Sequence record: MT129654.1
Strand: one strand, 5' to 3'
From: Escherichia phage MN04
DNA length: 64,000 bases
Part shown: positions 5,209 to 55,439 of the stretch, in pieces
Position numbering within the stretch: position 1 is the stretch's first letter
How the letters are laid out: each line of letters starts with the position of its first letter
Made by a program: the position numbers and the translations under genes
Notes under the pieces: generated by a model
Database searches by the model: none
What the model was told of the DNA's origin: nothing
The model's input: only the letters and a program-made list of their open reading frames with translations

Positions 5209-5502
5209 ATGAAAACTTATCAAGAATTTATCAAAGAATCGACAGATTTGTATTCCATTAACAAAGCGGCTATGGCCGATATTAGTAGCGATATTAAAAG
5301 AGCCTTTGGCTCAGGTGATGTTGATAAGGCTCAGCAAATTACTATTACAGTAAATGGTAAACCTGTTAGTATAGCATTCAATACGGTTAAAAAGAAATAT
5401 TATATTAATCTTGGTGATGATATCCACTTTACAAAATATAAGACTTTTTCCGGTCTTACCAAAGATAAAGTAGTTTCTAAAATCAAAGAAATTACAAAAT
5501 AA
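5209..5502 (+). CDS. internal protein with capsid targeting sequence MKTYQEFIKES (97 aa)
   Basis: N-terminal CTS as in T4 IPI/IPII/IPIII; position next to 57B as for T4 ipI. Confidence 0.65.
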   Translation: MKTYQEFIKESTDLYSINKAAMADISSDIKRAFGSGDVDKAQQITITVNGKPVSIAFNTVKKKYYINLGDDIHFTKYKTFSGLTKDKVVSKIKEITK

Positions 5503-8559: not shown

Positions 8560-9177
8560 ATGAAAACTTACAATGAATTTTTGAACGAAAGCGTTCTGAC
8601 TGAAGCCAGCGTGCGCATGACTAAAGATATGTGGCAAGCTGCTTATGATAAAATTTCCGGGACTAAAACCACTACCGAGTTCTTTAAAAACGTTTATGAT
8701 ATGTATGGTTTTGATACTAGTAGCCAGAAAGAATATTACAAAGCTTCCAAAGCTTTTAAAGATATCGTAGCCGGTGGCGCTACTAAGCCTGCTAAACCAG
8801 CTAAAGCTCCTGTTTCTAAACCCGTGGCTCAGACCAAAGTTGCAGCACCGAAACCGACACCTAAAGCAGAGCCTGTAAAAGAAGCTCCTAAACCTAAAAT
8901 CAAGTTCGACACCAGCACTATTGTTAAAAAATATAACCAGCTGGCTTCTTTGGTTTCTGAAATCGAATCCGAAACTAAACAACTCGTTCGAGAATTCAAC
9001 GCCCTTCGTAATGGGCAGCACATTAACAACCTGGATACCCCAGACCTCTATCGTCTTTACCTGACGGTTGAAGGCCTTAAGTATACCCAGCCTATGCACG
9101 AAGAAATTGATAACAAACTTCGTCAAGCCCGCCGCCTTGCAGGTGACGCAGCACAGTTCGAAAAGACCCGTAAATAA
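8560..9177 (+). CDS. internal protein, IPIII-like (205 aa, Lys/Ala/Pro-rich, CTS MKTYNEFLNES)
   Basis: CTS N-terminus; basic AKPAKAP repeats; late promoter upstream. Confidence 0.65.
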   Translation: MKTYNEFLNESVLTEASVRMTKDMWQAAYDKISGTKTTTEFFKNVYDMYGFDTSSQKEYYKASKAFKDIVAGGATKPAKPAKAPVSKPVAQTKVAAPKPTPKAEPVKEAPKPKIKFDTSTIVKKYNQLASLVSEIESETKQLVREFNALRNGQHINNLDTPDLYRLYLTVEGLKYTQPMHEEIDNKLRQARRLAGDAAQFEKTRK

Positions 9178-16473: not shown

Positions 16474-16706
16474 GTATTGCAATTTATATTAAATCTGAGT
16501 CGTGTGATTCTTATCTGTATTCCTATGATACGGGTACATCAGAAGAGAAAATCAAAGAAGATTTAGAAAGCGACTTGGATATGTTCCGCCCTATTTCTGA
16601 CTATATGGTCCAAATATCTGATAGTGAAAGTCCGTCAACAGAAACGTGTGTTGAAATTATTATACGAGATATTTTTGAACAATCATGGAAACGAGACGAT
16701 GAGTAA
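16470..16706 (+). CDS. small acidic protein (78 aa)
   Basis: ATGA-coupled ORF. Confidence 0.45.
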   Translation: MSIAIYIKSESCDSYLYSYDTGTSEEKIKEDLESDLDMFRPISDYMVQISDSESPSTETCVEIIIRDIFEQSWKRDDE

Positions 16707-17145
16707 AGTTAAAGAATTATCCGCAGGTATTTTGTTCATGACCGCCGATAAAGAATTGGTTATGGGTCGTGTAACAGGCTCTCGTAATCCAGAGAACATG
16801 CGTCATAAATGGGACATTCCTAAAGGTCATGTCGAACCAGGCGAAGAGCCTATTCAAGCAGCAATGCGTGAAACCGAAGAAGAGATTGGATTCACGGCAT
16901 ACGACCCTGCGTTCCTGAAAGACCTAGGTGAGTTCAAATATTCAAGCAATAAGAATCTACACCTGTTCTTATATACTGTGCCTGTCGAACACGAGCAGTT
17001 CAAGAATTGCAAATGTACAGCTTACCATACGTTCCCTGATGGTCGTACGATTCCGGAATTCGACGCTTTCGCTTTGATTAAACGTCCGCAATGGGAATAT
17101 GTCATGGGCCCGTCGATGTTTAAGGTTTTAGATTCGCTCTTTTGA
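16699..17145 (+). CDS. Nudix hydrolase (148 aa), counterpart of T4 e.1/NudE
   Basis: Nudix box GHVEPGEEPIQAAMRETEEEIGF; located just upstream of endolysin e as in T4. Confidence 0.8.
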   Translation: MSKVKELSAGILFMTADKELVMGRVTGSRNPENMRHKWDIPKGHVEPGEEPIQAAMRETEEEIGFTAYDPAFLKDLGEFKYSSNKNLHLFLYTVPVEHEQFKNCKCTAYHTFPDGRTIPEFDAFALIKRPQWEYVMGPSMFKVLDSLF

Positions 17146-17175
17146 TATAAATACCTCCTATAATCAGGAGGTATT
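17146..17175 (+). promoter_or_regulatory. late promoter TATAAATA fused to an RBS-sequestering hairpin for gene e
   Basis: TATAAATA 17146-17153; hairpin acctcc-tataatc-aggagg places the SD in the 3' arm; same arrangement is known for T4 gene e. Confidence 0.6.
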
Positions 17176-17664
17176 ATGGATATTTTTGATATGTTACGTC
17201 AAGACGAAGGTCTTGATTTAAATCTTTATAAAGACACTGAAGGTTATTGGACTATTGGTATTGGCCAGTTAGTTACCAAGAACCCATCTAAAGATGTTGC
17301 TCGCGCTGAACTTGATAAGCTTATGGGCCGAGTTTGTAATGGTCGTATTACTATGGCTGAAGCTGAACAACTCTTTAATCGTTCAGTGGAAAATGCTCGT
17401 AGAGCTATAATGCGTAATCCTAAATTGAAACCGGTTTATGATGTGCTGGACGAAGTTCGTCGTTGCGCATTGATTAATATGGTCTTCCAAATGGGCGAAG
17501 CTGGTGTAGCAGGATTTACCAACTCTCTGCGTATGCTCCAACAGAAACGTTGGGATGATGCCGCAGTTAACCTGGCGCAGTCTCGTTGGTACAAGCAAAC
17601 CCCGAATCGTGCCAAGCGTGTTATCGCCACTTTTAAAACAGGTACTTGGGCTGCTTATAGATAA
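17176..17664 (+). CDS. e: endolysin (T4 lysozyme e, 162 aa)
   Basis: [32 protein letters not shown]... is near-identical in pattern to T4 lysozyme. Confidence 0.95.
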
Positions 17665-17669
17665 AAGCA

Positions 17670-17705
17670 GTTTACATCTCCTAGAATTGTGATAGTATAT
17701 CTACA
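17670..17705 (+). promoter_or_regulatory. T4-type early promoter
   Basis: GTTTAC 17670-17675, -10 TAGTAT 17694-17699. Confidence 0.5.
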
Positions 17706-17748: not shown

Positions 17749-18345
17749 ATGAAAACGTATAAAGAATTTATCACCGAAGCTACTGCAGGAAAGGTCAAAG
17801 GCATTAATAAAGATGAGTGGACCTACCGAGGAAACGGCGTTGACAACCCAGGAAACGGCTTTGACGCTAAAACAGCTCCTATTGAACGGTATTTAGCTAC
17901 AAAAGCTTCCGACTTTAAAGCTTTCGCCTGGGAAGGACTTCGCTGGCGTAACGACCTAAATATTGAAGCTGATGGACTTAAATTTGCTCATATTCAGGAT
18001 GTTGTTGCTAGTAACTTAGACGCAGCTTTTGTTAAAGCTGACAGCGACCTTCGTCGCTGGAATTTAAAACTGTTCTCTAAACAGAAAGGTCCGGTATTTG
18101 TACCTAAAGCAGGTAAATGGACTATTGATAATAAATTGGCTAAAGCAGTCAACTTCGCTGGTCTTGAATTTGCCAAGCATAAATCAGCATGGAAAGGTCT
18201 TGATACAATGGCTTTCCGTAAAGAATTTGCCGATGTTATGACTAAAGCCGGCTTTAAGGCAGAGCTAGATACCTCTAAAGGTACGTTTAAAGACGCTAAT
18301 ATTCAGTACGCTTACGCCGTTGCTAATGCCGCTCGTGGTAATTAA
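17749..18345 (+). CDS. internal protein with CTS MKTYKEFITEA (198 aa)
   Basis: CTS N-terminus; SD gaagga. Confidence 0.65.
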   Translation: MKTYKEFITEATAGKVKGINKDEWTYRGNGVDNPGNGFDAKTAPIERYLATKASDFKAFAWEGLRWRNDLNIEADGLKFAHIQDVVASNLDAAFVKADSDLRRWNLKLFSKQKGPVFVPKAGKWTIDNKLAKAVNFAGLEFAKHKSAWKGLDTMAFRKEFADVMTKAGFKAELDTSKGTFKDANIQYAYAVANAARGN

Positions 18346-18405
18346 TAAAGCCTATACTGACCCTTAAATCCGTGATAGAATACTTCTATCAACTTAAGGA
18401 ATAAT

Positions 18406-18705
18406 ATGAAAACTTATCAAGAATTTATTACAGAAGCCAAAGCTCCTAAAGCATTCCAAATAGGTGTCCAAGGCACCTTAGACCAAGAATATGTTGATGC
18501 TATTGTAGCAAGCCTCGGTAAACAGGGTGTACAAGTGGATTTGGTTGATTTTACTAAAGGTAATACTTTTAATATTGTTACATCTAAAGGCTCTTTAGCT
18601 AAAGTTAAAAAGGCCTTTGGTGTAGCCCAAGCATACGAAATCGACCACTCCGAATTGGAAAATAAAGGTCGCCAGAACACAATTAAAGGTTCTGGTTCTT
18701 TCTAA
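18406..18705 (+). CDS. internal protein with CTS MKTYQEFITEA (99 aa)
   Basis: CTS N-terminus; SD taaggaa. Confidence 0.65.
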   Translation: MKTYQEFITEAKAPKAFQIGVQGTLDQEYVDAIVASLGKQGVQVDLVDFTKGNTFNIVTSKGSLAKVKKAFGVAQAYEIDHSELENKGRQNTIKGSGSF

Positions 18706-18801
18706 TAAAGGCAAGCCGGCCCTCTCCTCATGAACGTCGCGTCCTCTGAGTGATGGACCTTTCCCTACCTGTAATAAGGTCGAGCCCAAGTGCGGTAAAG
18801 G

Positions 18802-18835
18802 GTTTACATACGGATACATGGATGAATTATGTGCC
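18802..18835 (+). promoter_or_regulatory. candidate early promoter
   Basis: GTTTAC 18802-18807 with AATTAT 17 nt downstream. Confidence 0.4.
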
Positions 18836-18865
18836 AAGGAATGGCCCCACAACTAAGAGACAATT

Positions 18866-19411
18866 ATGAAAACGTTTTTAACCGGTAGTTATCTATCCCT
18901 GATGAATGCTTTTGCAAACCATTCTGATGCTAGAGTAGAACACATTTGTAATAGTGGGTTTTATGTACCCGATTCACCAACCCTGTTTAAAGAATGCTGC
19001 ACCTTAAAACTTGACGGCGGACGCCAATCTGGCAAAACAAGGGCAGTATCCATTTTTGCTACAGAATGGTTAGCTAATGGTGGCTCTATTGTTATTTTGT
19101 CTAATAACACGGCGTATGCTAATGTTTCGGCTACTGCAATCCGAAAAGAATATTTTAATAACCATACAGAAAGTATTAAGTACCGTTTGTACACTGATTC
19201 TGTTCGTAGTTTTATTGGTAACACTGCATGCAAATTCCGTGGATTATCACTTTCACGGGTTCTGTATATAATTGATGAGCCTGTTAAAACACCTGATATG
19301 GATAAGATTTATGATGCTCATATAAAGGTAGTCCAGAATTGCTGCCGAGCTCAATGCGTAGAAAGAAATCAAACCGCAAGACCTTTGTTTTTTGTGATAG
19401 GAATGCAATGA
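18866..19411 (+). CDS. P-loop-containing protein (181 aa)
   Basis: Walker A-like GGRQSGKT; ORF with SD aagagac. Confidence 0.5.
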   Translation: MKTFLTGSYLSLMNAFANHSDARVEHICNSGFYVPDSPTLFKECCTLKLDGGRQSGKTRAVSIFATEWLANGGSIVILSNNTAYANVSATAIRKEYFNNHTESIKYRLYTDSVRSFIGNTACKFRGLSLSRVLYIIDEPVKTPDMDKIYDAHIKVVQNCCRAQCVERNQTARPLFFVIGMQ

Positions 19412-19704: not shown

Positions 19705-19915
19705 ATTGACAATTGAAGGCTCTGATGAAGCCCTGAAGATGTTTGTTGACTGGTTCCACGAACAGGGCGAACAAGGCTTTATGGAATGTTGGGACGGTGG
19801 CCAATGGAATGGTAAAGAAATTGTTTACCCGACTACGTATATCTCTGTTAGTGGTGGATACGATGGCCTTCGTTTTGTAGAATATGATATTGCATCTGAT
19901 GAGGAAGTGAAATGA
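19697..19915 (+). CDS. hypothetical protein (72 aa)
   Basis: Overlapping coupled ORF. Confidence 0.45.
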   Translation: MSKLTIEGSDEALKMFVDWFHEQGEQGFMECWDGGQWNGKEIVYPTTYISVSGGYDGLRFVEYDIASDEEVK

Positions 19916-20190
19916 TTGAAGATATCAAGGGTTACAAGCCACATACCGACGATAAAATCAGTAAAGTGAATGCCATTAAAGATGCTGAAGTTCGATTAGG
20001 CTTAATCTTTAAAGCATTAGAAGAAGAATACGTTGAAGCCTTTACATGCTCAGGTGTTGATAAAATGAGTGATGAAGAATTCGACCTCACTCATGAACGT
20101 CTCGCCCAGATTCGTACGGCAATCGAACGCTTGAAAGAAGCCTCCATGTGGGCCTGTCGTTCTGTTTTCCAACCCGAAGAAAAATACTAA
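19912..20190 (+). CDS. hypothetical protein (92 aa)
   Basis: ATGA-coupled ORF. Confidence 0.45.
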   Translation: MIEDIKGYKPHTDDKISKVNAIKDAEVRLGLIFKALEEEYVEAFTCSGVDKMSDEEFDLTHERLAQIRTAIERLKEASMWACRSVFQPEEKY

Positions 20191-50703: not shown

Positions 50704-51204
50704 ATGAAAAAGTTAATTATCGCAATGAGTATGCTCCTATCAGGTTGCGCAGTCCAATACGGTGATGCAGTTTCGGCTGATGAAGTTGGTAAAGCTCGTA
50801 TCGCAGCTGAACAGAAACAATTCGACGGCGAAATGAAATTCCGTGCCGGTTCTGGACTTGTGTATACCCGAGCTAATAATCAATGTGGTAATAACTGTGC
50901 AAAATATGCTCAAAGGGAAATCGAATTCCAACGTGAACAAGAGTCTAAGCGTGAAGCGGTACTAGCCAAACACCAGGCAGAAATGAAGCGCCAAGATGAT
51001 TTGTACAAAAAGCAGAAACTGTATTCTATGTGTGTAAACCATATCAATTTACAGATTTCTGTCCATGAGGCTCGTTATTACGAAATGCTCGAAACCGAGA
51101 GCTTCGATAAGGCTCGTGATTATAAGAAACAAATCAACAAGCTTAAGACCAAAGTGCCTGCTGCAGTAGAACAGTGCATGGAATACGGTAAAGATAAGAT
51201 TTAA
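50704..51204 (+). CDS. predicted lipoprotein (166 aa)
   Basis: Signal peptide with lipobox LLSGC; charged coiled-coil-like mature part. Confidence 0.55.
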   Translation: MKKLIIAMSMLLSGCAVQYGDAVSADEVGKARIAAEQKQFDGEMKFRAGSGLVYTRANNQCGNNCAKYAQREIEFQREQESKREAVLAKHQAEMKRQDDLYKKQKLYSMCVNHINLQISVHEARYYEMLETESFDKARDYKKQINKLKTKVPAAVEQCMEYGKDKI

Positions 51205-51240
51205 GCAATAGAAATTTATTAAAAATAGTGTATAATGTAC
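51200..51240 (+). promoter_or_regulatory. candidate promoter for the modification operon (-10 only)
   Basis: TATAAT at 51231-51236 preceded by TG; no clear -35. Confidence 0.3.
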
Positions 51241-51264
51241 CTACATTCACTTGAGGAACAGATA

Positions 51265-52938
51265 ATGAAAAAGGTTGTTATTTTAGGCGCAGGTCTTGGC
51301 TCACGGTTGTATCCAATTACTAACGAAATCCCGAAGGTATTGGTTAACTATAAACAACATACGGTATTAAAGCATTTGTATGATTTGTATAGTAACCAAT
51401 CAGATGAAATTATTCTGGTTATTCACAGCAAATTTAACGACCTCGTTAAAGGCTATATTAAATCCATTAACATGATTACTGGTGATAAGCCTAAATTCAC
51501 TATTCGTAACGTTGATGTTGCTAATGGTTCAGCTCATGCTATCGATTGCATTGCCGAAGATATCATTGGCCATAACGTCCTGTTTAACTGGTGTGACATC
51601 ATTCCTGAAGGTCATAAAGTTGAGTGGGGTAACGACTACTGTTATACCTATGGAACTGACTGTCGTTTTACATTTGAAGAACCGTACTTACGTGAAATTG
51701 GCACTGGTGGTGGCGTAGTTGGTTTATATCAGGTGGCTAATTGGACAGGTTTCGACCGTTCTAATTACGGTGAAGACCTTGCTGATAACCTGGATTCAAT
51801 GGTCTATTTGACTGAACGTAAACTGGACTTTGTAGTTGATGTCGGTGACAAATTGAAACTGGCTAAGGCCCATGAAGATTCTGAAATTAACCGTGAATTT
51901 AATAAATTAGAATTCACCGAGAATCTGGCTATTAAAGTACCAACTAACGAATTAGGTAAAGAAATTCAATCTAAAGAAATCAATTGGTATAATTCTATTG
52001 ATTCTGAATTCGTTCCTAGCATTGTAGACTTTTCTCCAGGCGAATTCATTAAAATGGAACGTATCTTTGGTCGGACCATGGCAGATGCCTACCGGTTTAT
52101 GTCCAAAGAAACTAAAGTCCTCATGGTTTATAAGGTCATTAGTGCATTACGTTCATTCGGTGGAACTATTGATAATCCGTCCGATGAACAATGGTATTCC
52201 GATGTTAAGAAAGAAGTATTGGACAAGGTCCTTATTCGTAATGCTTCTATTGCCGGATTGATTGAAGGCTTTGCTCCACAAGGCATTACCCATGTTAACG
52301 ATTTCAAAGTAGGCGACCCTGAAAAACTTCTCCGCCATGCACTAGAAATTCTGTCTGAACATAAAGAACCGTACCAACTTATTCATGGCGACCCACACTA
52401 CAGTAATATTATGCTGTCGGACGAAGGTGATATTAAAATCATCGACCCACGTGGTTATTTCGGTAATAGTTCTAAAGGCCCTGCGATTTATGATGAAGCT
52501 AAGGTGCTTTATTCTATCGATGGCTATGACAAATTTAACTCAGACCCTCTATGGGGTGGATTAACCCGTAACGGAACTCGTGTATTCGTTGATATTGAAA
52601 AGGTTATGCCTTTAGACGATATCCCTATGTGCACATTTAAGCACAAGCTCTGGATTGCTGTTATTTGGATGGCTCTGGCAGGTTACTTTAAGAATAACCC
52701 TCTGAAAGCTCTGGGTGCTTATTATAACGGTTTGTACCAACTGAGTGTGCTGCTGAAGCGGCATCCTCGTAAGCGTAAGCTTATTACAGGTGAATTTGTC
52801 GATGAAGTTCGTGACCCTATCACGGCCCAAATTATTACTCGTTGTCCTGATAAGTGGGTTTTGCTTGACCAGGAAACTGGTGTAAAATATAAACCTACAG
52901 GTTCTACTGAACTCCACAAACAATGGAAGAAAATTTAA
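51265..52938 (+). CDS. bifunctional sugar-1-phosphate nucleotidyltransferase (N-terminal) / APH-fold kinase (C-terminal), 557 aa
   Basis: N-terminus VVILGAGLGSRLYPITNEIPKVLV (GxGxRxxPxT...PKxLV signature of RmlA/LicC-type NTases); C-terminal HGDPHYSNIML and IIDPRGYFG (Brenner and DFG-like motifs of choline/aminoglycoside/anomeric-sugar kinases). Confidence 0.65.
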   Translation: MKKVVILGAGLGSRLYPITNEIPKVLVNYKQHTVLKHLYDLYSNQSDEIILVIHSKFNDLVKGYIKSINMITGDKPKFTIRNVDVANGSAHAIDCIAEDIIGHNVLFNWCDIIPEGHKVEWGNDYCYTYGTDCRFTFEEPYLREIGTGGGVVGLYQVANWTGFDRSNYGEDLADNLDSMVYLTERKLDFVVDVGDKLKLAKAHEDSEINREFNKLEFTENLAIKVPTNELGKEIQSKEINWYNSIDSEFVPSIVDFSPGEFIKMERIFGRTMADAYRFMSKETKVLMVYKVISALRSFGGTIDNPSDEQWYSDVKKEVLDKVLIRNASIAGLIEGFAPQGITHVNDFKVGDPEKLLRHALEILSEHKEPYQLIHGDPHYSNIMLSDEGDIKIIDPRGYFGNSSKGPAIYDEAKVLYSIDGYDKFNSDPLWGGLTRNGTRVFVDIEKVMPLDDIPMCTFKHKLWIAVIWMALAGYFKNNPLKALGAYYNGLYQLSVLLKRHPRKRKLITGEFVDEVRDPITAQIITRCPDKWVLLDQETGVKYKPTGSTELHKQWKKI

Positions 52939-53321
52939 TGTCGCATCGAGTAGAAAATAAGCCACATTTATGTTTTGATATCGATAACACAATCACGATT
53001 TGGAACCATGACCGTGATTATGAGAACTTTAAACCGGACACCGAAATGGTGTCCATGATTAATAAGCTTTATGATGAAGGGTACGAGATTACATTGTTCA
53101 CCGCGCGTGGCATGACTTCATGTGGCCCAGGTCGAATCTTGGTTGAAGTAGTTCCTGCATTGGTTAAGAACCTTGAAAAGATTGGATTGAAATATCATAA
53201 TCTGCTTACACATAAGCCGAGTTATACTTTTATCATCGATGACCGAGCAATCCGTCCCGACCACTTTAAAGAAATGGTTCGTGAAGGAACTCTTGATAGT
53301 TATAAGGCCTATCATCCATGA
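52938..53321 (+). CDS. HAD-superfamily phosphatase (127 aa)
   Basis: Motif I CFDIDNTIT (DxDxT), motif II TLFTAR, motif III HKPS, motif IV IIDDRA; TAATG coupling. Confidence 0.65.
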   Translation: MSHRVENKPHLCFDIDNTITIWNHDRDYENFKPDTEMVSMINKLYDEGYEITLFTARGMTSCGPGRILVEVVPALVKNLEKIGLKYHNLLTHKPSYTFIIDDRAIRPDHFKEMVREGTLDSYKAYHP

Positions 53322-53854
53322 ATCCAAAAATCATTGTTATAGACGGCCCGGATAATTCCGGGAAGTCCACTTTAATTAAAAATCTGTTATCCAATAAGAA
53401 ATACCGCCTTATTGATTTTCCTAAAAAGATTAATGGTAAGTGTATTTCATTAGGAACTGATAACGATAAGGCTTTAGTTGAAACTCTGTATAAGTTTTTA
53501 GACCCTAATTTCGTTTATATCCTTGACCGTGGTTATCCAAGTAATATTGTTTACTCAGGATTCCTTCGTGGTGAAATGGACCCTTATGTAGAACTGGAAG
53601 ATTGGAAAGGGTTTAAATCTGAATTTAACGTTATCGAGGTTATTTTAACTCGCAATCCATTAGACGAAGACTTCGAAGACGACCTTATTAAATTAACCAA
53701 AGATGAGTTCAACCTAACTATCCGGCAATACGAAACATGTTTTGAAAACGTGTTTAAAATCTTAAATCATGACGGCCATAATAATTTGCTTAATGTTGAT
53801 ATGGTAGAATTAAAACGTCTGAACGAATATATTGAAAATAAGGTGAATAGATGA
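53318..53854 (+). CDS. P-loop nucleoside monophosphate kinase, thymidylate-kinase family (178 aa)
   Basis: IVIDGPDNSGKSTL Walker A and ILDRGYPS...VYSG (DRY-like motif); ATGA coupling. Confidence 0.6.
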   Translation: MNPKIIVIDGPDNSGKSTLIKNLLSNKKYRLIDFPKKINGKCISLGTDNDKALVETLYKFLDPNFVYILDRGYPSNIVYSGFLRGEMDPYVELEDWKGFKSEFNVIEVILTRNPLDEDFEDDLIKLTKDEFNLTIRQYETCFENVFKILNHDGHNNLLNVDMVELKRLNEYIENKVNR

Positions 53855-54549
53855 AACACATTACCGCTGTTAGTTTTGAAAATGCATTTAAACAAATGAA
53901 CGAAGAAATCCTGGAAGCTCCACAGTTTGCAGTTGATTCTCGTATCGGACGTTGTTATGAAATTGGTTCTGCTTCGGTAGAAGTACTGGATGCAAGCACC
54001 TATAAATTCACCGATCCTCGTATTAATCGTATTAGTTATGAATATGCCGAATCTTTCTGGAAGTTTATGATTTCTGGTGGTACTGACGCCGCCGAAGCAT
54101 TTAAGGAATACCCTAATGTTGCTAAGTTCATTGATAAGCCGAAAAGTGACGTATTGCCTGCAAACTTCAACACTTTCTATGGACCTCGAATTGTGGCCCA
54201 ACTCCCAGCCTTACTTAAAGAGCTTAAAGAAAAGCCTAACTCAAGACGCGTTGTGTTCCAGATTCTCCAAGAACAAGACCAAGCCCTCCTTGATTCTGAC
54301 GAATCCTTAGAATATCCTTGCACCGATTCGGTAACGTATTATATTCGTGATGGACGTCTGTATGCACACACTCATATGCGTTCACAGAACTGTGCTATTG
54401 TTATGCAGCTGGATTTCTATCTGCAGGGTAAACTGATGGCATTTATTGCTGAACAGTGCGGTGTCGGTTTAGGTACATATTCCCACACCATGGTAAGTGC
54501 ACACGTGTTTGAACGTGATTTTGACTACGTCCGAGGTTTCCTGAAATGA
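53851..54549 (+). CDS. 42: pyrimidine hydroxymethylase of the thymidylate-synthase fold, positional and sequence counterpart of T4 gp42 dCMP hydroxymethylase (232 aa)
   Basis: NSRRVVFQI, YPCTDSV (catalytic Cys), MRSQNCAIVMQLDF with Asp at the position that is Asp in T4 dCMP hydroxymethylase and Asn in ThyA. Confidence 0.75.
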   Translation: MKHITAVSFENAFKQMNEEILEAPQFAVDSRIGRCYEIGSASVEVLDASTYKFTDPRINRISYEYAESFWKFMISGGTDAAEAFKEYPNVAKFIDKPKSDVLPANFNTFYGPRIVAQLPALLKELKEKPNSRRVVFQILQEQDQALLDSDESLEYPCTDSVTYYIRDGRLYAHTHMRSQNCAIVMQLDFYLQGKLMAFIAEQCGVGLGTYSHTMVSAHVFERDFDYVRGFLK

Positions 54550-55439
54550 GTTTGTTTATCGTTCCTATTTTCAGTATGCGTAGTTACGAAACAGGTGAAT
54601 ATGCCGTCCTTAAGGACGGCAATTTTCAACTCCATTTAAATCGTGCTCGTCCAGGTGATTATCTGGCTTATCCTAGAAATTCGAGCGATATCAAAGAATG
54701 CATTGAATTATTCCCAGATCTGAATTTCGTACCACTTTGGTATAAAGAAAATGCTTATGAAACCCGTAAACATTTCTGGTCTGAAAATGAGTTTGTAGTC
54801 GATTCACTAATCGAATACTACGATTGCTCAGGACTGGTAACCGATATCACTGGTTACGATGGTGCTCATACTGTACAATTCAACTTTAATATCACAATGG
54901 ACCCTGAAGTTCCTCGTTATTATATCGACGAGTTCATTGATATTGATGTGGCTTCAGTTGAACGTTCACTTTATACTACAGTCCTGAATCAATGCCAGAA
55001 AGACGTCTTGGTGTCACGAGGTGCATCCTCTGATAAGATTTTTGTAGACCAAAAGGTAATTAATCCTGCAGTAATTGAGCGTTACTCTGAAGGTCTAGCG
55101 CCTATTAAAATTGATGGTATTTTCCATCCATTCCGTATTTCAGATAAGTGTTATCAATTCGAAAGAGTTGTAGACCAAGCTGCCGCTGAAGGTGCTCGTC
55201 TTTATATCACCGATCCGAATGATTCATTTAAGCGCGAAGACTATCGTCCTGATGTAGAGATTATTAAATTCAAACCAAGTAAGGTTGAATATTATCAAAT
55301 TCTGAAATCAAGACCACATATCATTTATCATGAGAACCCAGGTTTAGTATTCCATCCTGGTCTGGCTGAATTCATTTATTTCGGTGCCAATATTCATTCT
55401 GAATACGAAATGCCACGTTATGAGGACGTAGTATGCTAG
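54546..55439 (+). CDS. unassigned 297-aa protein in the slot where T4 has beta-glucosyltransferase; candidate DNA sugar-transferase
   Basis: ATGA-coupled to the hydroxymethylase; no resemblance to remembered T4 bgt. Confidence 0.5.
   Translation: MSLFIVPIFSMRSYETGEYAVLKDGNFQLHLNRARPGDYLAYPRNSSDIKECIELFPDLNFVPLWYKENAYETRKHFWSENEFVVDSLIEYYDCSGLVTDITGYDGAHTVQFNFNITMDPEVPRYYIDEFIDIDVASVERSLYTTVLNQCQKDVLVSRGASSDKIFVDQKVINPAVIERYSEGLAPIKIDGIFHPFRISDKCYQFERVVDQAAAEGARLYITDPNDSFKREDYRPDVEIIKFKPSKVEYYQILKSRPHIIYHENPGLVFHPGLAEFIYFGANIHSEYEMPRYEDVVC

Follow-up and report, generated by a model that had tools for sequence, protein, structure and literature searches.

Among the closest described counterparts of the locus presented here are the internal proteins of phage T4. 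About 360-370 copies of each of these proteins are held in the T4 head and ejected along with the DNA (PMC9026906, PMC3012670). The first 10 residues of T4 IPIII, the capsid-targeting sequence (CTS), are enough to package foreign proteins, with residues 4 and 7 serving targeting and residues 8 and 10 serving processing (PMC9026906, PMC3012670). The gene ipIII is needed by T4 for plating on E. coli ECOR17, and plasmid-borne IPIII without the CTS rescues (Srikant et al., PMC9391042). The target of T4 Ip3 is the two-gene type IV restriction system GmrS1/GmrSD2 of ECOR17 (Silas et al., Nat Commun 2025, PMC12373910).

Ip1, Ip2 and Ip3 of T4 each block a different GmrSD variant and give no cross-protection (PMC12373910); IPII (Ip2) is the inhibitor of the fused GmrSD/BrxU of ECOR21. 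T4 IPI* inhibits GmrS/GmrD of CT596 (PMC3012670), and the CTS protein Bas37_0260 counters McrBC (HIDEN-SEQ preprint). None of the genes ip4 to ip10, ip7 included, reproducibly inhibited the GmrSD variants against which they were tested; a signal of ip7 with CLS_011 was not repeatable (PMC12373910 supplement).

Two CTS-tagged genes downstream of the endolysin gene

The window, i.e. the whole stretch of 64 kb analysed here, shares 98.3% nucleotide identity with Escherichia phage JS98 (Straboviridae, Tevenvirinae, Dhakavirus), and 94-98% with JS10, fDHCT2, MX01 and QL01. Judged by this identity, the window belongs to a JS98-like Dhakavirus, a T4-type phage. By synteny it corresponds to about 13-78 kb of JS98; the head-gene region, with the prohead protease gp21 and the scaffold core, falls outside it.

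ORF listing and raw sequence both place an ORF for a 198-aa protein starting with MKTYKEFITEA (ATG at 17749, end at 18345) and one for a 99-aa protein starting with MKTYQEFITEA (ATG at 18406, end at 18705) on the plus strand, each preceded by a ribosome-binding site (AGGA/AAGGA). This agrees with the initial annotation, which had described two CTS-tagged ORFs directly after gene e, where T4 has ipIII and ipII: a T4-lysozyme homologue occupies 17176-17664, and in T4 ipIII and ipII do come right after e. The Nudix gene nudE and gene e precede ipIII, and the order nudE-e-ipIII is common to the window, T4 and JS98. The features of the locus are the following:

17146-17153, plus strand: T4-type late promoter box TATAAATA upstream of e (pattern scan)
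17176-17664, plus strand: gene e (endolysin), synteny anchor (Pfam Phage_lysozyme, E=6.5e-13; 74% amino acid identity to T4 e; annotated as e in JS98)
17671-17698, plus strand: early-type sigma-70 promoter-like site upstream of ipIII, TTTACA-16 nt-TAGTAT with TG before the -10 (consensus match only)
17749-17778, plus strand: CTS-coding segment of ipIII, MKTYKEFITE (ORF start and CTS pattern; CTS function defined in T4, PMC9026906)
17749-18345, plus strand: ipIII, internal protein III, 198-aa precursor (similarity to T4 IPIII, JS98 IpIII and phrog_5341; single [LI]xE; AF2 model)
18359-18363, plus strand: deletion junction, 5 nt GACCC replacing the denV cassette (local blastn and sequence comparison)
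18373-18381, plus strand: extended -10 TGaTAGAAT of a putative promoter upstream of ip7 (comparison with JS98 and QL01 intergenic sequences)
18406-18705, plus strand: ip7-type internal head protein gene, 99-aa precursor with the CTS at residues 1-10 (similarity to JS98 orf112, phrog_2667 and VR7/T2 Ip7; AF2 model)
18706-18865, plus strand: GC-rich conserved spacer of 160 nt from ip7 to the vs.8-like gene (49% GC vs 39% in the window)
18866-19411, plus strand: vs.8-like gene, 181 aa, downstream border of the variable locus (61% to T4 Vs.8 residues 41-219; 90% to JS98 vs.8; phrog_1488)

Four ORF starts of the window (5209, 8560, 17749 and 18406) fit a relaxed CTS pattern, compared to a mean of 0.005 and a maximum of 1 in 200 shuffled sequences; the motif is therefore not there by chance. 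Both proteins contain a single [LI]xE motif, which lies at residue 10 (MKTYKEFITE/A in the 198-aa and MKTYQEFITE/A in the 99-aa protein, the slash marking the cleavage position). It is at motifs of this I-T-E/A type that gp21, the prohead protease of T4, cuts.

The N-terminus common to the CTS genes might be only a module for recombination or translation initiation, in which case the 99-aa protein would not be packaged. Indeed, the four MKTY genes resemble each other at DNA level in their first approximately 30 nt and in their ribosome-binding regions, and cassettes are shuffled between loci. In the 99-aa protein, however, Tyr4, Phe7, Ile8 and Glu10 are retained, all of them reported to matter for targeting or processing. 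In the alignments of both the IPIII and the Ip7 family, the CTS columns and Ala11 vary little or not at all, although the remainder of Ip7 goes down to 47% identity. We regard the module explanation as very improbable.

Instead, we are highly confident in an account in which the pair represents ipIII and an ip7-type gene in a JS98-like phage, their products being loaded by the CTS, trimmed by gp21 and injected, with an anti-restriction function for IPIII and a probable inhibitor function for Ip7. It draws on the ORFs, the CTS with its cleavage motif, orthology, synteny, the basic mature products and the predicted folds. The 10-residue N-terminus MKTY(K/Q)EFITE would bring both proteins into the scaffolding core while the prohead assembles. 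Cleavage by gp21 after Glu10, at I-T-E/A, would then yield basic mature proteins of 20.8 and 9.5 kDa, hundreds of copies of which would remain in the head together with the DNA and be ejected into the cell with it. There, IPIII would bind and block a type IV restriction endonuclease of the GmrS/GmrSD type, which otherwise cuts sugar-modified hydroxymethylcytosine DNA; in a secondary role it may speed head assembly. The Ip7-type protein most likely enters the cell as a further inhibitor with a specific target, this being a host nuclease or defence that acts early.

Two further ORFs of the window start with a CTS, too. One (5209-5502) encodes 97 aa and belongs to phrog_27873; the other (8560-9177) encodes 205 aa, belongs to phrog_2280 and has a second L-T-E/A site at residue 15. 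These are presumably what the initial annotation called the first cluster. The 97-aa protein was compared with the anti-McrBC protein Bas37_0260 and rejected as its counterpart, 14 of 36 N-terminal residues being common, mostly those of the CTS.

Searches of PADLOC and NCBIfam gave no match for the 198-aa or the 99-aa protein. Downstream, at 19912-20190, lies a 92-aa homologue of vs.4 (66% to T4 Vs.4), whose equivalents in related phages are assigned to Pfam PF24729, Acb2_Tad1_hairpin, a family of anti-CBASS/Thoeris sponges; this places the ipIII-ip7 pair in a wider counter-defence neighbourhood. A lysozyme-domain match on the minus strand (3-344; 46% to T4 e residues 3-111) is truncated by the start of the window and is probably the lysozyme domain of the gene 5 baseplate protein.

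The 198-aa protein, its presumed target and its role in the head

The 198-aa protein shows 86% amino acid identity to T4 IPIII (193 aa) over the full length (BLASTP, E=6e-127), 98% to the annotated IpIII of JS98, and matches phrog_5341, 'internal virion protein', over residues 1-198 (E=2e-114). Its homologues (P0001-P0011 and JS98 IpIII) are assigned to Pfam PF26861, Phage_T4_IpIII; our local Pfam copy, which apparently predates this model, gave no match for the protein itself. Judged by this similarity the ORF is ipIII, a gene already annotated in JS98 and not a new protein. The initial annotation had considered it unusually large and its mature sequence not recognisable. Neither holds, since the protein is IPIII and exceeds its T4 counterpart essentially by one insertion of six residues. 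The identification of both the ipIII and the ip7-type gene is secure.

Like T4 IPIII, the protein combines the CTS and the I-x-E/A motif with a location directly after e, the same size class and a basic charge. The mature form predicted after cleavage at Glu10 comprises 188 aa (20.8 kDa, pI 9.6, 31 K+R). It differs from T4 IPIII by about 27 substitutions, a missing C-terminal Ser and the insertion, where GNGVDNPGNGFD faces S------GNGFD in T4 and the GNGxD motif is duplicated. In the AF2 model (pLDDT 81) the insertion falls in a low-confidence loop. The IPIII family comprises 260 phage records from the hosts Escherichia, Klebsiella, Shigella, Salmonella and Yersinia.

Packaging, cleavage, injection and inhibition of GmrSD by the IPIII of the window would follow T4, from whose experiments they are transferred via the 86% identity. 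That the specific ECOR17 target, GmrS1/GmrSD2, carries over as well we consider only rather probable, because each such inhibitor has a narrow specificity. With 14% of its residues diverged from T4 IPIII and with the 6-residue insertion, the protein could have an altered target specificity.

A further, probable difference from T4 concerns the DNA itself. Between the genes 43 and uvsX, the window contains a cluster of sugar-nucleotide genes along with a gene of the thymidylate-synthase family:

50704-55439: five genes, encoding a 567-aa nucleotidyltransferase and kinase fusion, a 132-aa phosphoheptose-isomerase-like protein, a 178-aa thymidylate-kinase-like protein, a 232-aa thymidylate-synthase-family protein and a 297-aa protein of unknown function

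The 232-aa protein is only 25% identical to T4 gp42, and no homologue of the alpha- or beta-glucosyltransferase genes (a-gt, b-gt) was detected in the 64-kb window; the DNA sugar is therefore probably not glucose. A sugar-hydroxymethylcytosine other than the glucosylated form, e.g. of the arabinosyl type, is suggested. With these genes in the window, the premise of sugar-modified DNA is plausible. The host nuclease of relevance may thus be another one than in ECOR17. RB69, a phage with arabinosyl-hydroxymethylcytosine, is likewise reported to be restricted by the GmrSD of CT596 (PMC6024577).

Alternatively it might be that IPIII is mainly a part of head structure and assembly, a partner of the gp22 scaffold core and a lysine-rich counter-ion of the DNA, with anti-restriction as a secondary, host-specific extra. 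T4 lacking IPIII assembles heads at about half the normal rate, with a burst of about 40% and with polyheads, independently of IPI and IPII, and the internal proteins are purified together with gp22 (PMC9026906); their lysines are in contact with the phosphates of the DNA (PMC3012670). The strongly basic mature protein of the window (pI 9.6, 31 K+R) would suit such a function. Furthermore, IPIII is unusually conserved, 209 of the 260 phage records showing 80-90% identity, whereas other internal proteins are hypervariable. However, this conservation reaches synonymous sites (88% nucleotide identity to T4 vs 62-73% in the neighbouring genes), a pattern that a recent transfer of the cassette explains better than structural constraint does.

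Besides, ipIII is absent from 9 of the 23 related loci compared, among them complete genomes such as MH051913 and MH791409, and is therefore dispensable. The rescue of ECOR17 plating by CTS-less IPIII from a plasmid places the activity in the cytoplasm (PMC9391042), and with GmrS1/GmrSD2 a specific target is known (PMC12373910). We consider a mainly structural IPIII unlikely, at perhaps one chance in a few, and keep anti-restriction as its presumed main function.

Regarding the suggestion that each injected protein is a candidate inhibitor of a host defence, the class is right, as Ip1, Ip2 and Ip3 of T4 block GmrSD enzymes (PMC12373910). The novelty it implied does not stand: both genes are annotated in JS98 and the target of IPIII is published. 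The practical value lies in correct annotation, by which the 198-aa ORF would be recorded as an anti-restriction protein whose T4 counterpart has a published target.

The 99-aa protein of the Ip7 type

Instead of IPII, the position downstream of ipIII is occupied by a protein identical (100%) to JS98 orf112, 'internal head protein', and thus already known. It matches phrog_2667, 'internal head protein', over residues 1-99 (E=5.4e-43) and, over 97-99 residues, proteins annotated as Ip7, with 94-95% identity to those of VR7 and VR25 and about 50% to that of T2. All of these share the CTS and the length with the protein of the window. Ip7 was reportedly named in the early work of Repoila et al. 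(1994) on T-even polymorphism.

T4 IPII resembles the 99-aa protein in length (100 aa), in a nearly identical CTS and in its general location downstream of ipIII, but the two show no similarity past residue 12; with an alignment limited to residues 1-12, IPII was ruled out as counterpart. A tblastn search with T4 IPII found nothing else in the 64-kb window, from which a true IPII orthologue is absent. Such an orthologue exists in relatives, e.g. in fDHCT2 (91% to T4 IPII). We rejected an equivalence with the anti-McrBC protein Bas37_0260 of phage Bas37 KarlGJung (MZ501089), too, as only the 10-residue CTS is common to both.

The predicted mature protein comprises 89 aa (9.5 kDa, pI 9.0), and the AF2 model (pLDDT 74) exhibits a ferredoxin-like core. 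About 280 genomes of T4-type phages have a conserved Ip7. A profile search in 1.84 billion representative proteins for remote homologues gave eight matches. The credible ones are two full-length clusters and a few short proteins or fragments, among them P0037, whose start resembles a CTS. Three long proteins with HEAT-repeat/NACHT, RTX/BapA repeats or faint Pfam assignments matched in multiple stretches and were treated as spurious. Among the credible matches, the family appears small and confined to proteins of T4-type phages.

Packaging of the Ip7-type protein and any anti-defence role it may have are what we infer from the CTS and from small CTS-tagged injected proteins such as T4 IPI* and Bas37_0260, which may serve as models for an orphan internal protein of this kind. 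A literature search, in which the name overlaps with the inositol pyrophosphate 'IP7', gave no virion-proteome report on Ip7.

Tentatively, and with less than even confidence, we propose that Ip7, a protein of ferredoxin-like fold restricted to T4-type phages, is injected and inhibits a host defence other than the tested GmrSD variants, its cassette moving between the ipI and the e-vs.8 loci. If this is true, the ipIII-ip7 arrangement without denV would be a natural recombinant, showing gain and loss of cassettes via conserved flanks. Alternatively, Ip7 might be an injected protein of RRM/ACT-like fold that binds nucleic acids or small ligands and acts on host RNA or metabolism, or a DNA-condensing filler; we hold such a function outside anti-restriction to be improbable. 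As an orphan candidate for injection, Ip7 is the main remaining interest of the locus, together with the arrangement lacking denV, and is a reasonable candidate for a screen with a host panel and Tn-seq of the kind that found the targets of Ip2 and Ip3.

Loss of denV and organisation of the e-vs.8 interval

The locus was compared with 23 related loci, including those of JS98, JS10, fDHCT2, QL01, VR5, vB_EcoM_005 and IMG/VR contigs. In these relatives, the interval between e and vs.8 contains shuffled CTS cassettes around denV, namely IPIII, IPII, a 132-aa protein (JS98 orf114), an Ip5-like protein and ORFs of 87, 91 and 97 aa. Several CTS ORFs of the interval (132, 93, 91, 97 and 87 aa) are unannotated or listed as 'hypothetical' in the relatives (JS98 orf114, L001 3790-4188; loci L016-L022), and the cassette array differs even between nearly identical genomes.

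The UV-repair gene denV is kept in all 19 compared loci having this interval, and in T4, too. It is missing in the window, where five nucleotides (GACCC) replace the cassette and no DenV-like sequence was found anywhere within the 64 kb. At the position of the junction, QL01 has about 480 nt (ipIII-denV-ip7) and JS98 has 900 nt comprising orf114 and denV. The junction is not covered as a single piece by any phage record, and its 28-mer had no exact match in IMG/VR or the JGI metagenomes.

Because denV is missing, ip7 directly follows ipIII in the window. In JS98-type phages it is located after denV, and in T2 and its relatives in the ipI locus, between 57B and trna.4 (57B-ip5-ip7-trna.4 in T2). 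Four further loci of the comparison set carry ip7 in the ipI locus.

At nucleotide level, ipIII shares 88.3% with T4, compared to 72.8% for the adjacent e and 62.3% for nudE (nudE and e together covering 16696-17664). The amino acid identities to T4 are 86% for IPIII, 74% for e, 61% for nudE and 59-71% for core replication proteins. Since ipIII is much closer to T4 than its flanking genes, the sequences suggest that the cassette was recently exchanged between genera by lateral transfer, and not that constraint alone has kept it similar. With denV lost and ipIII mosaic in its identity, the locus provides an example of fast remodelling in an anti-defence region, which bears on host-range prediction for therapeutic T4-like phages.

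The box TATAAATA at 17146 is the only late promoter match on the plus strand between 15 and 20 kb, and no terminator-like site was detected between 17664 and 18866. Late read-through transcription of ipIII and ip7 from this box upstream of e would be plausible. The number of sigma-70-like sites in the region, such as the one in front of ipIII, is not above the expectation from shuffled sequences. The -35 element TTTACG of the putative ip7 promoter, which in the relatives lies in the 3' end of denV, has gone with the deletion, leaving the extended -10 alone.

The spacer between ip7 and the vs.8-like gene (18706-18865) shows 82-100% nucleotide identity in all related loci including T4. In the loci L025 and L026 this stretch lies upstream and not downstream of ip7. 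A structured RNA was rejected as explanation, the fold z-score being 0.35 with only one covarying pair and no tRNA detected by ARAGORN; Rfam gave no match at E<=1 in the spacer or in either ORF. In T4, the counterpart of the spacer is annotated as the 5' end of vs.8. Across the spacer of the window the T4-type vs.8 frame is broken: the two conserved blocks do not share a frame, and a stop codon ends the short ATG extension that JS98 has in its annotation. The spacer also holds the conserved start of a mini-ORF (MDELCAKEWP) and a promoter-like TTTACA-16-AATTAT.
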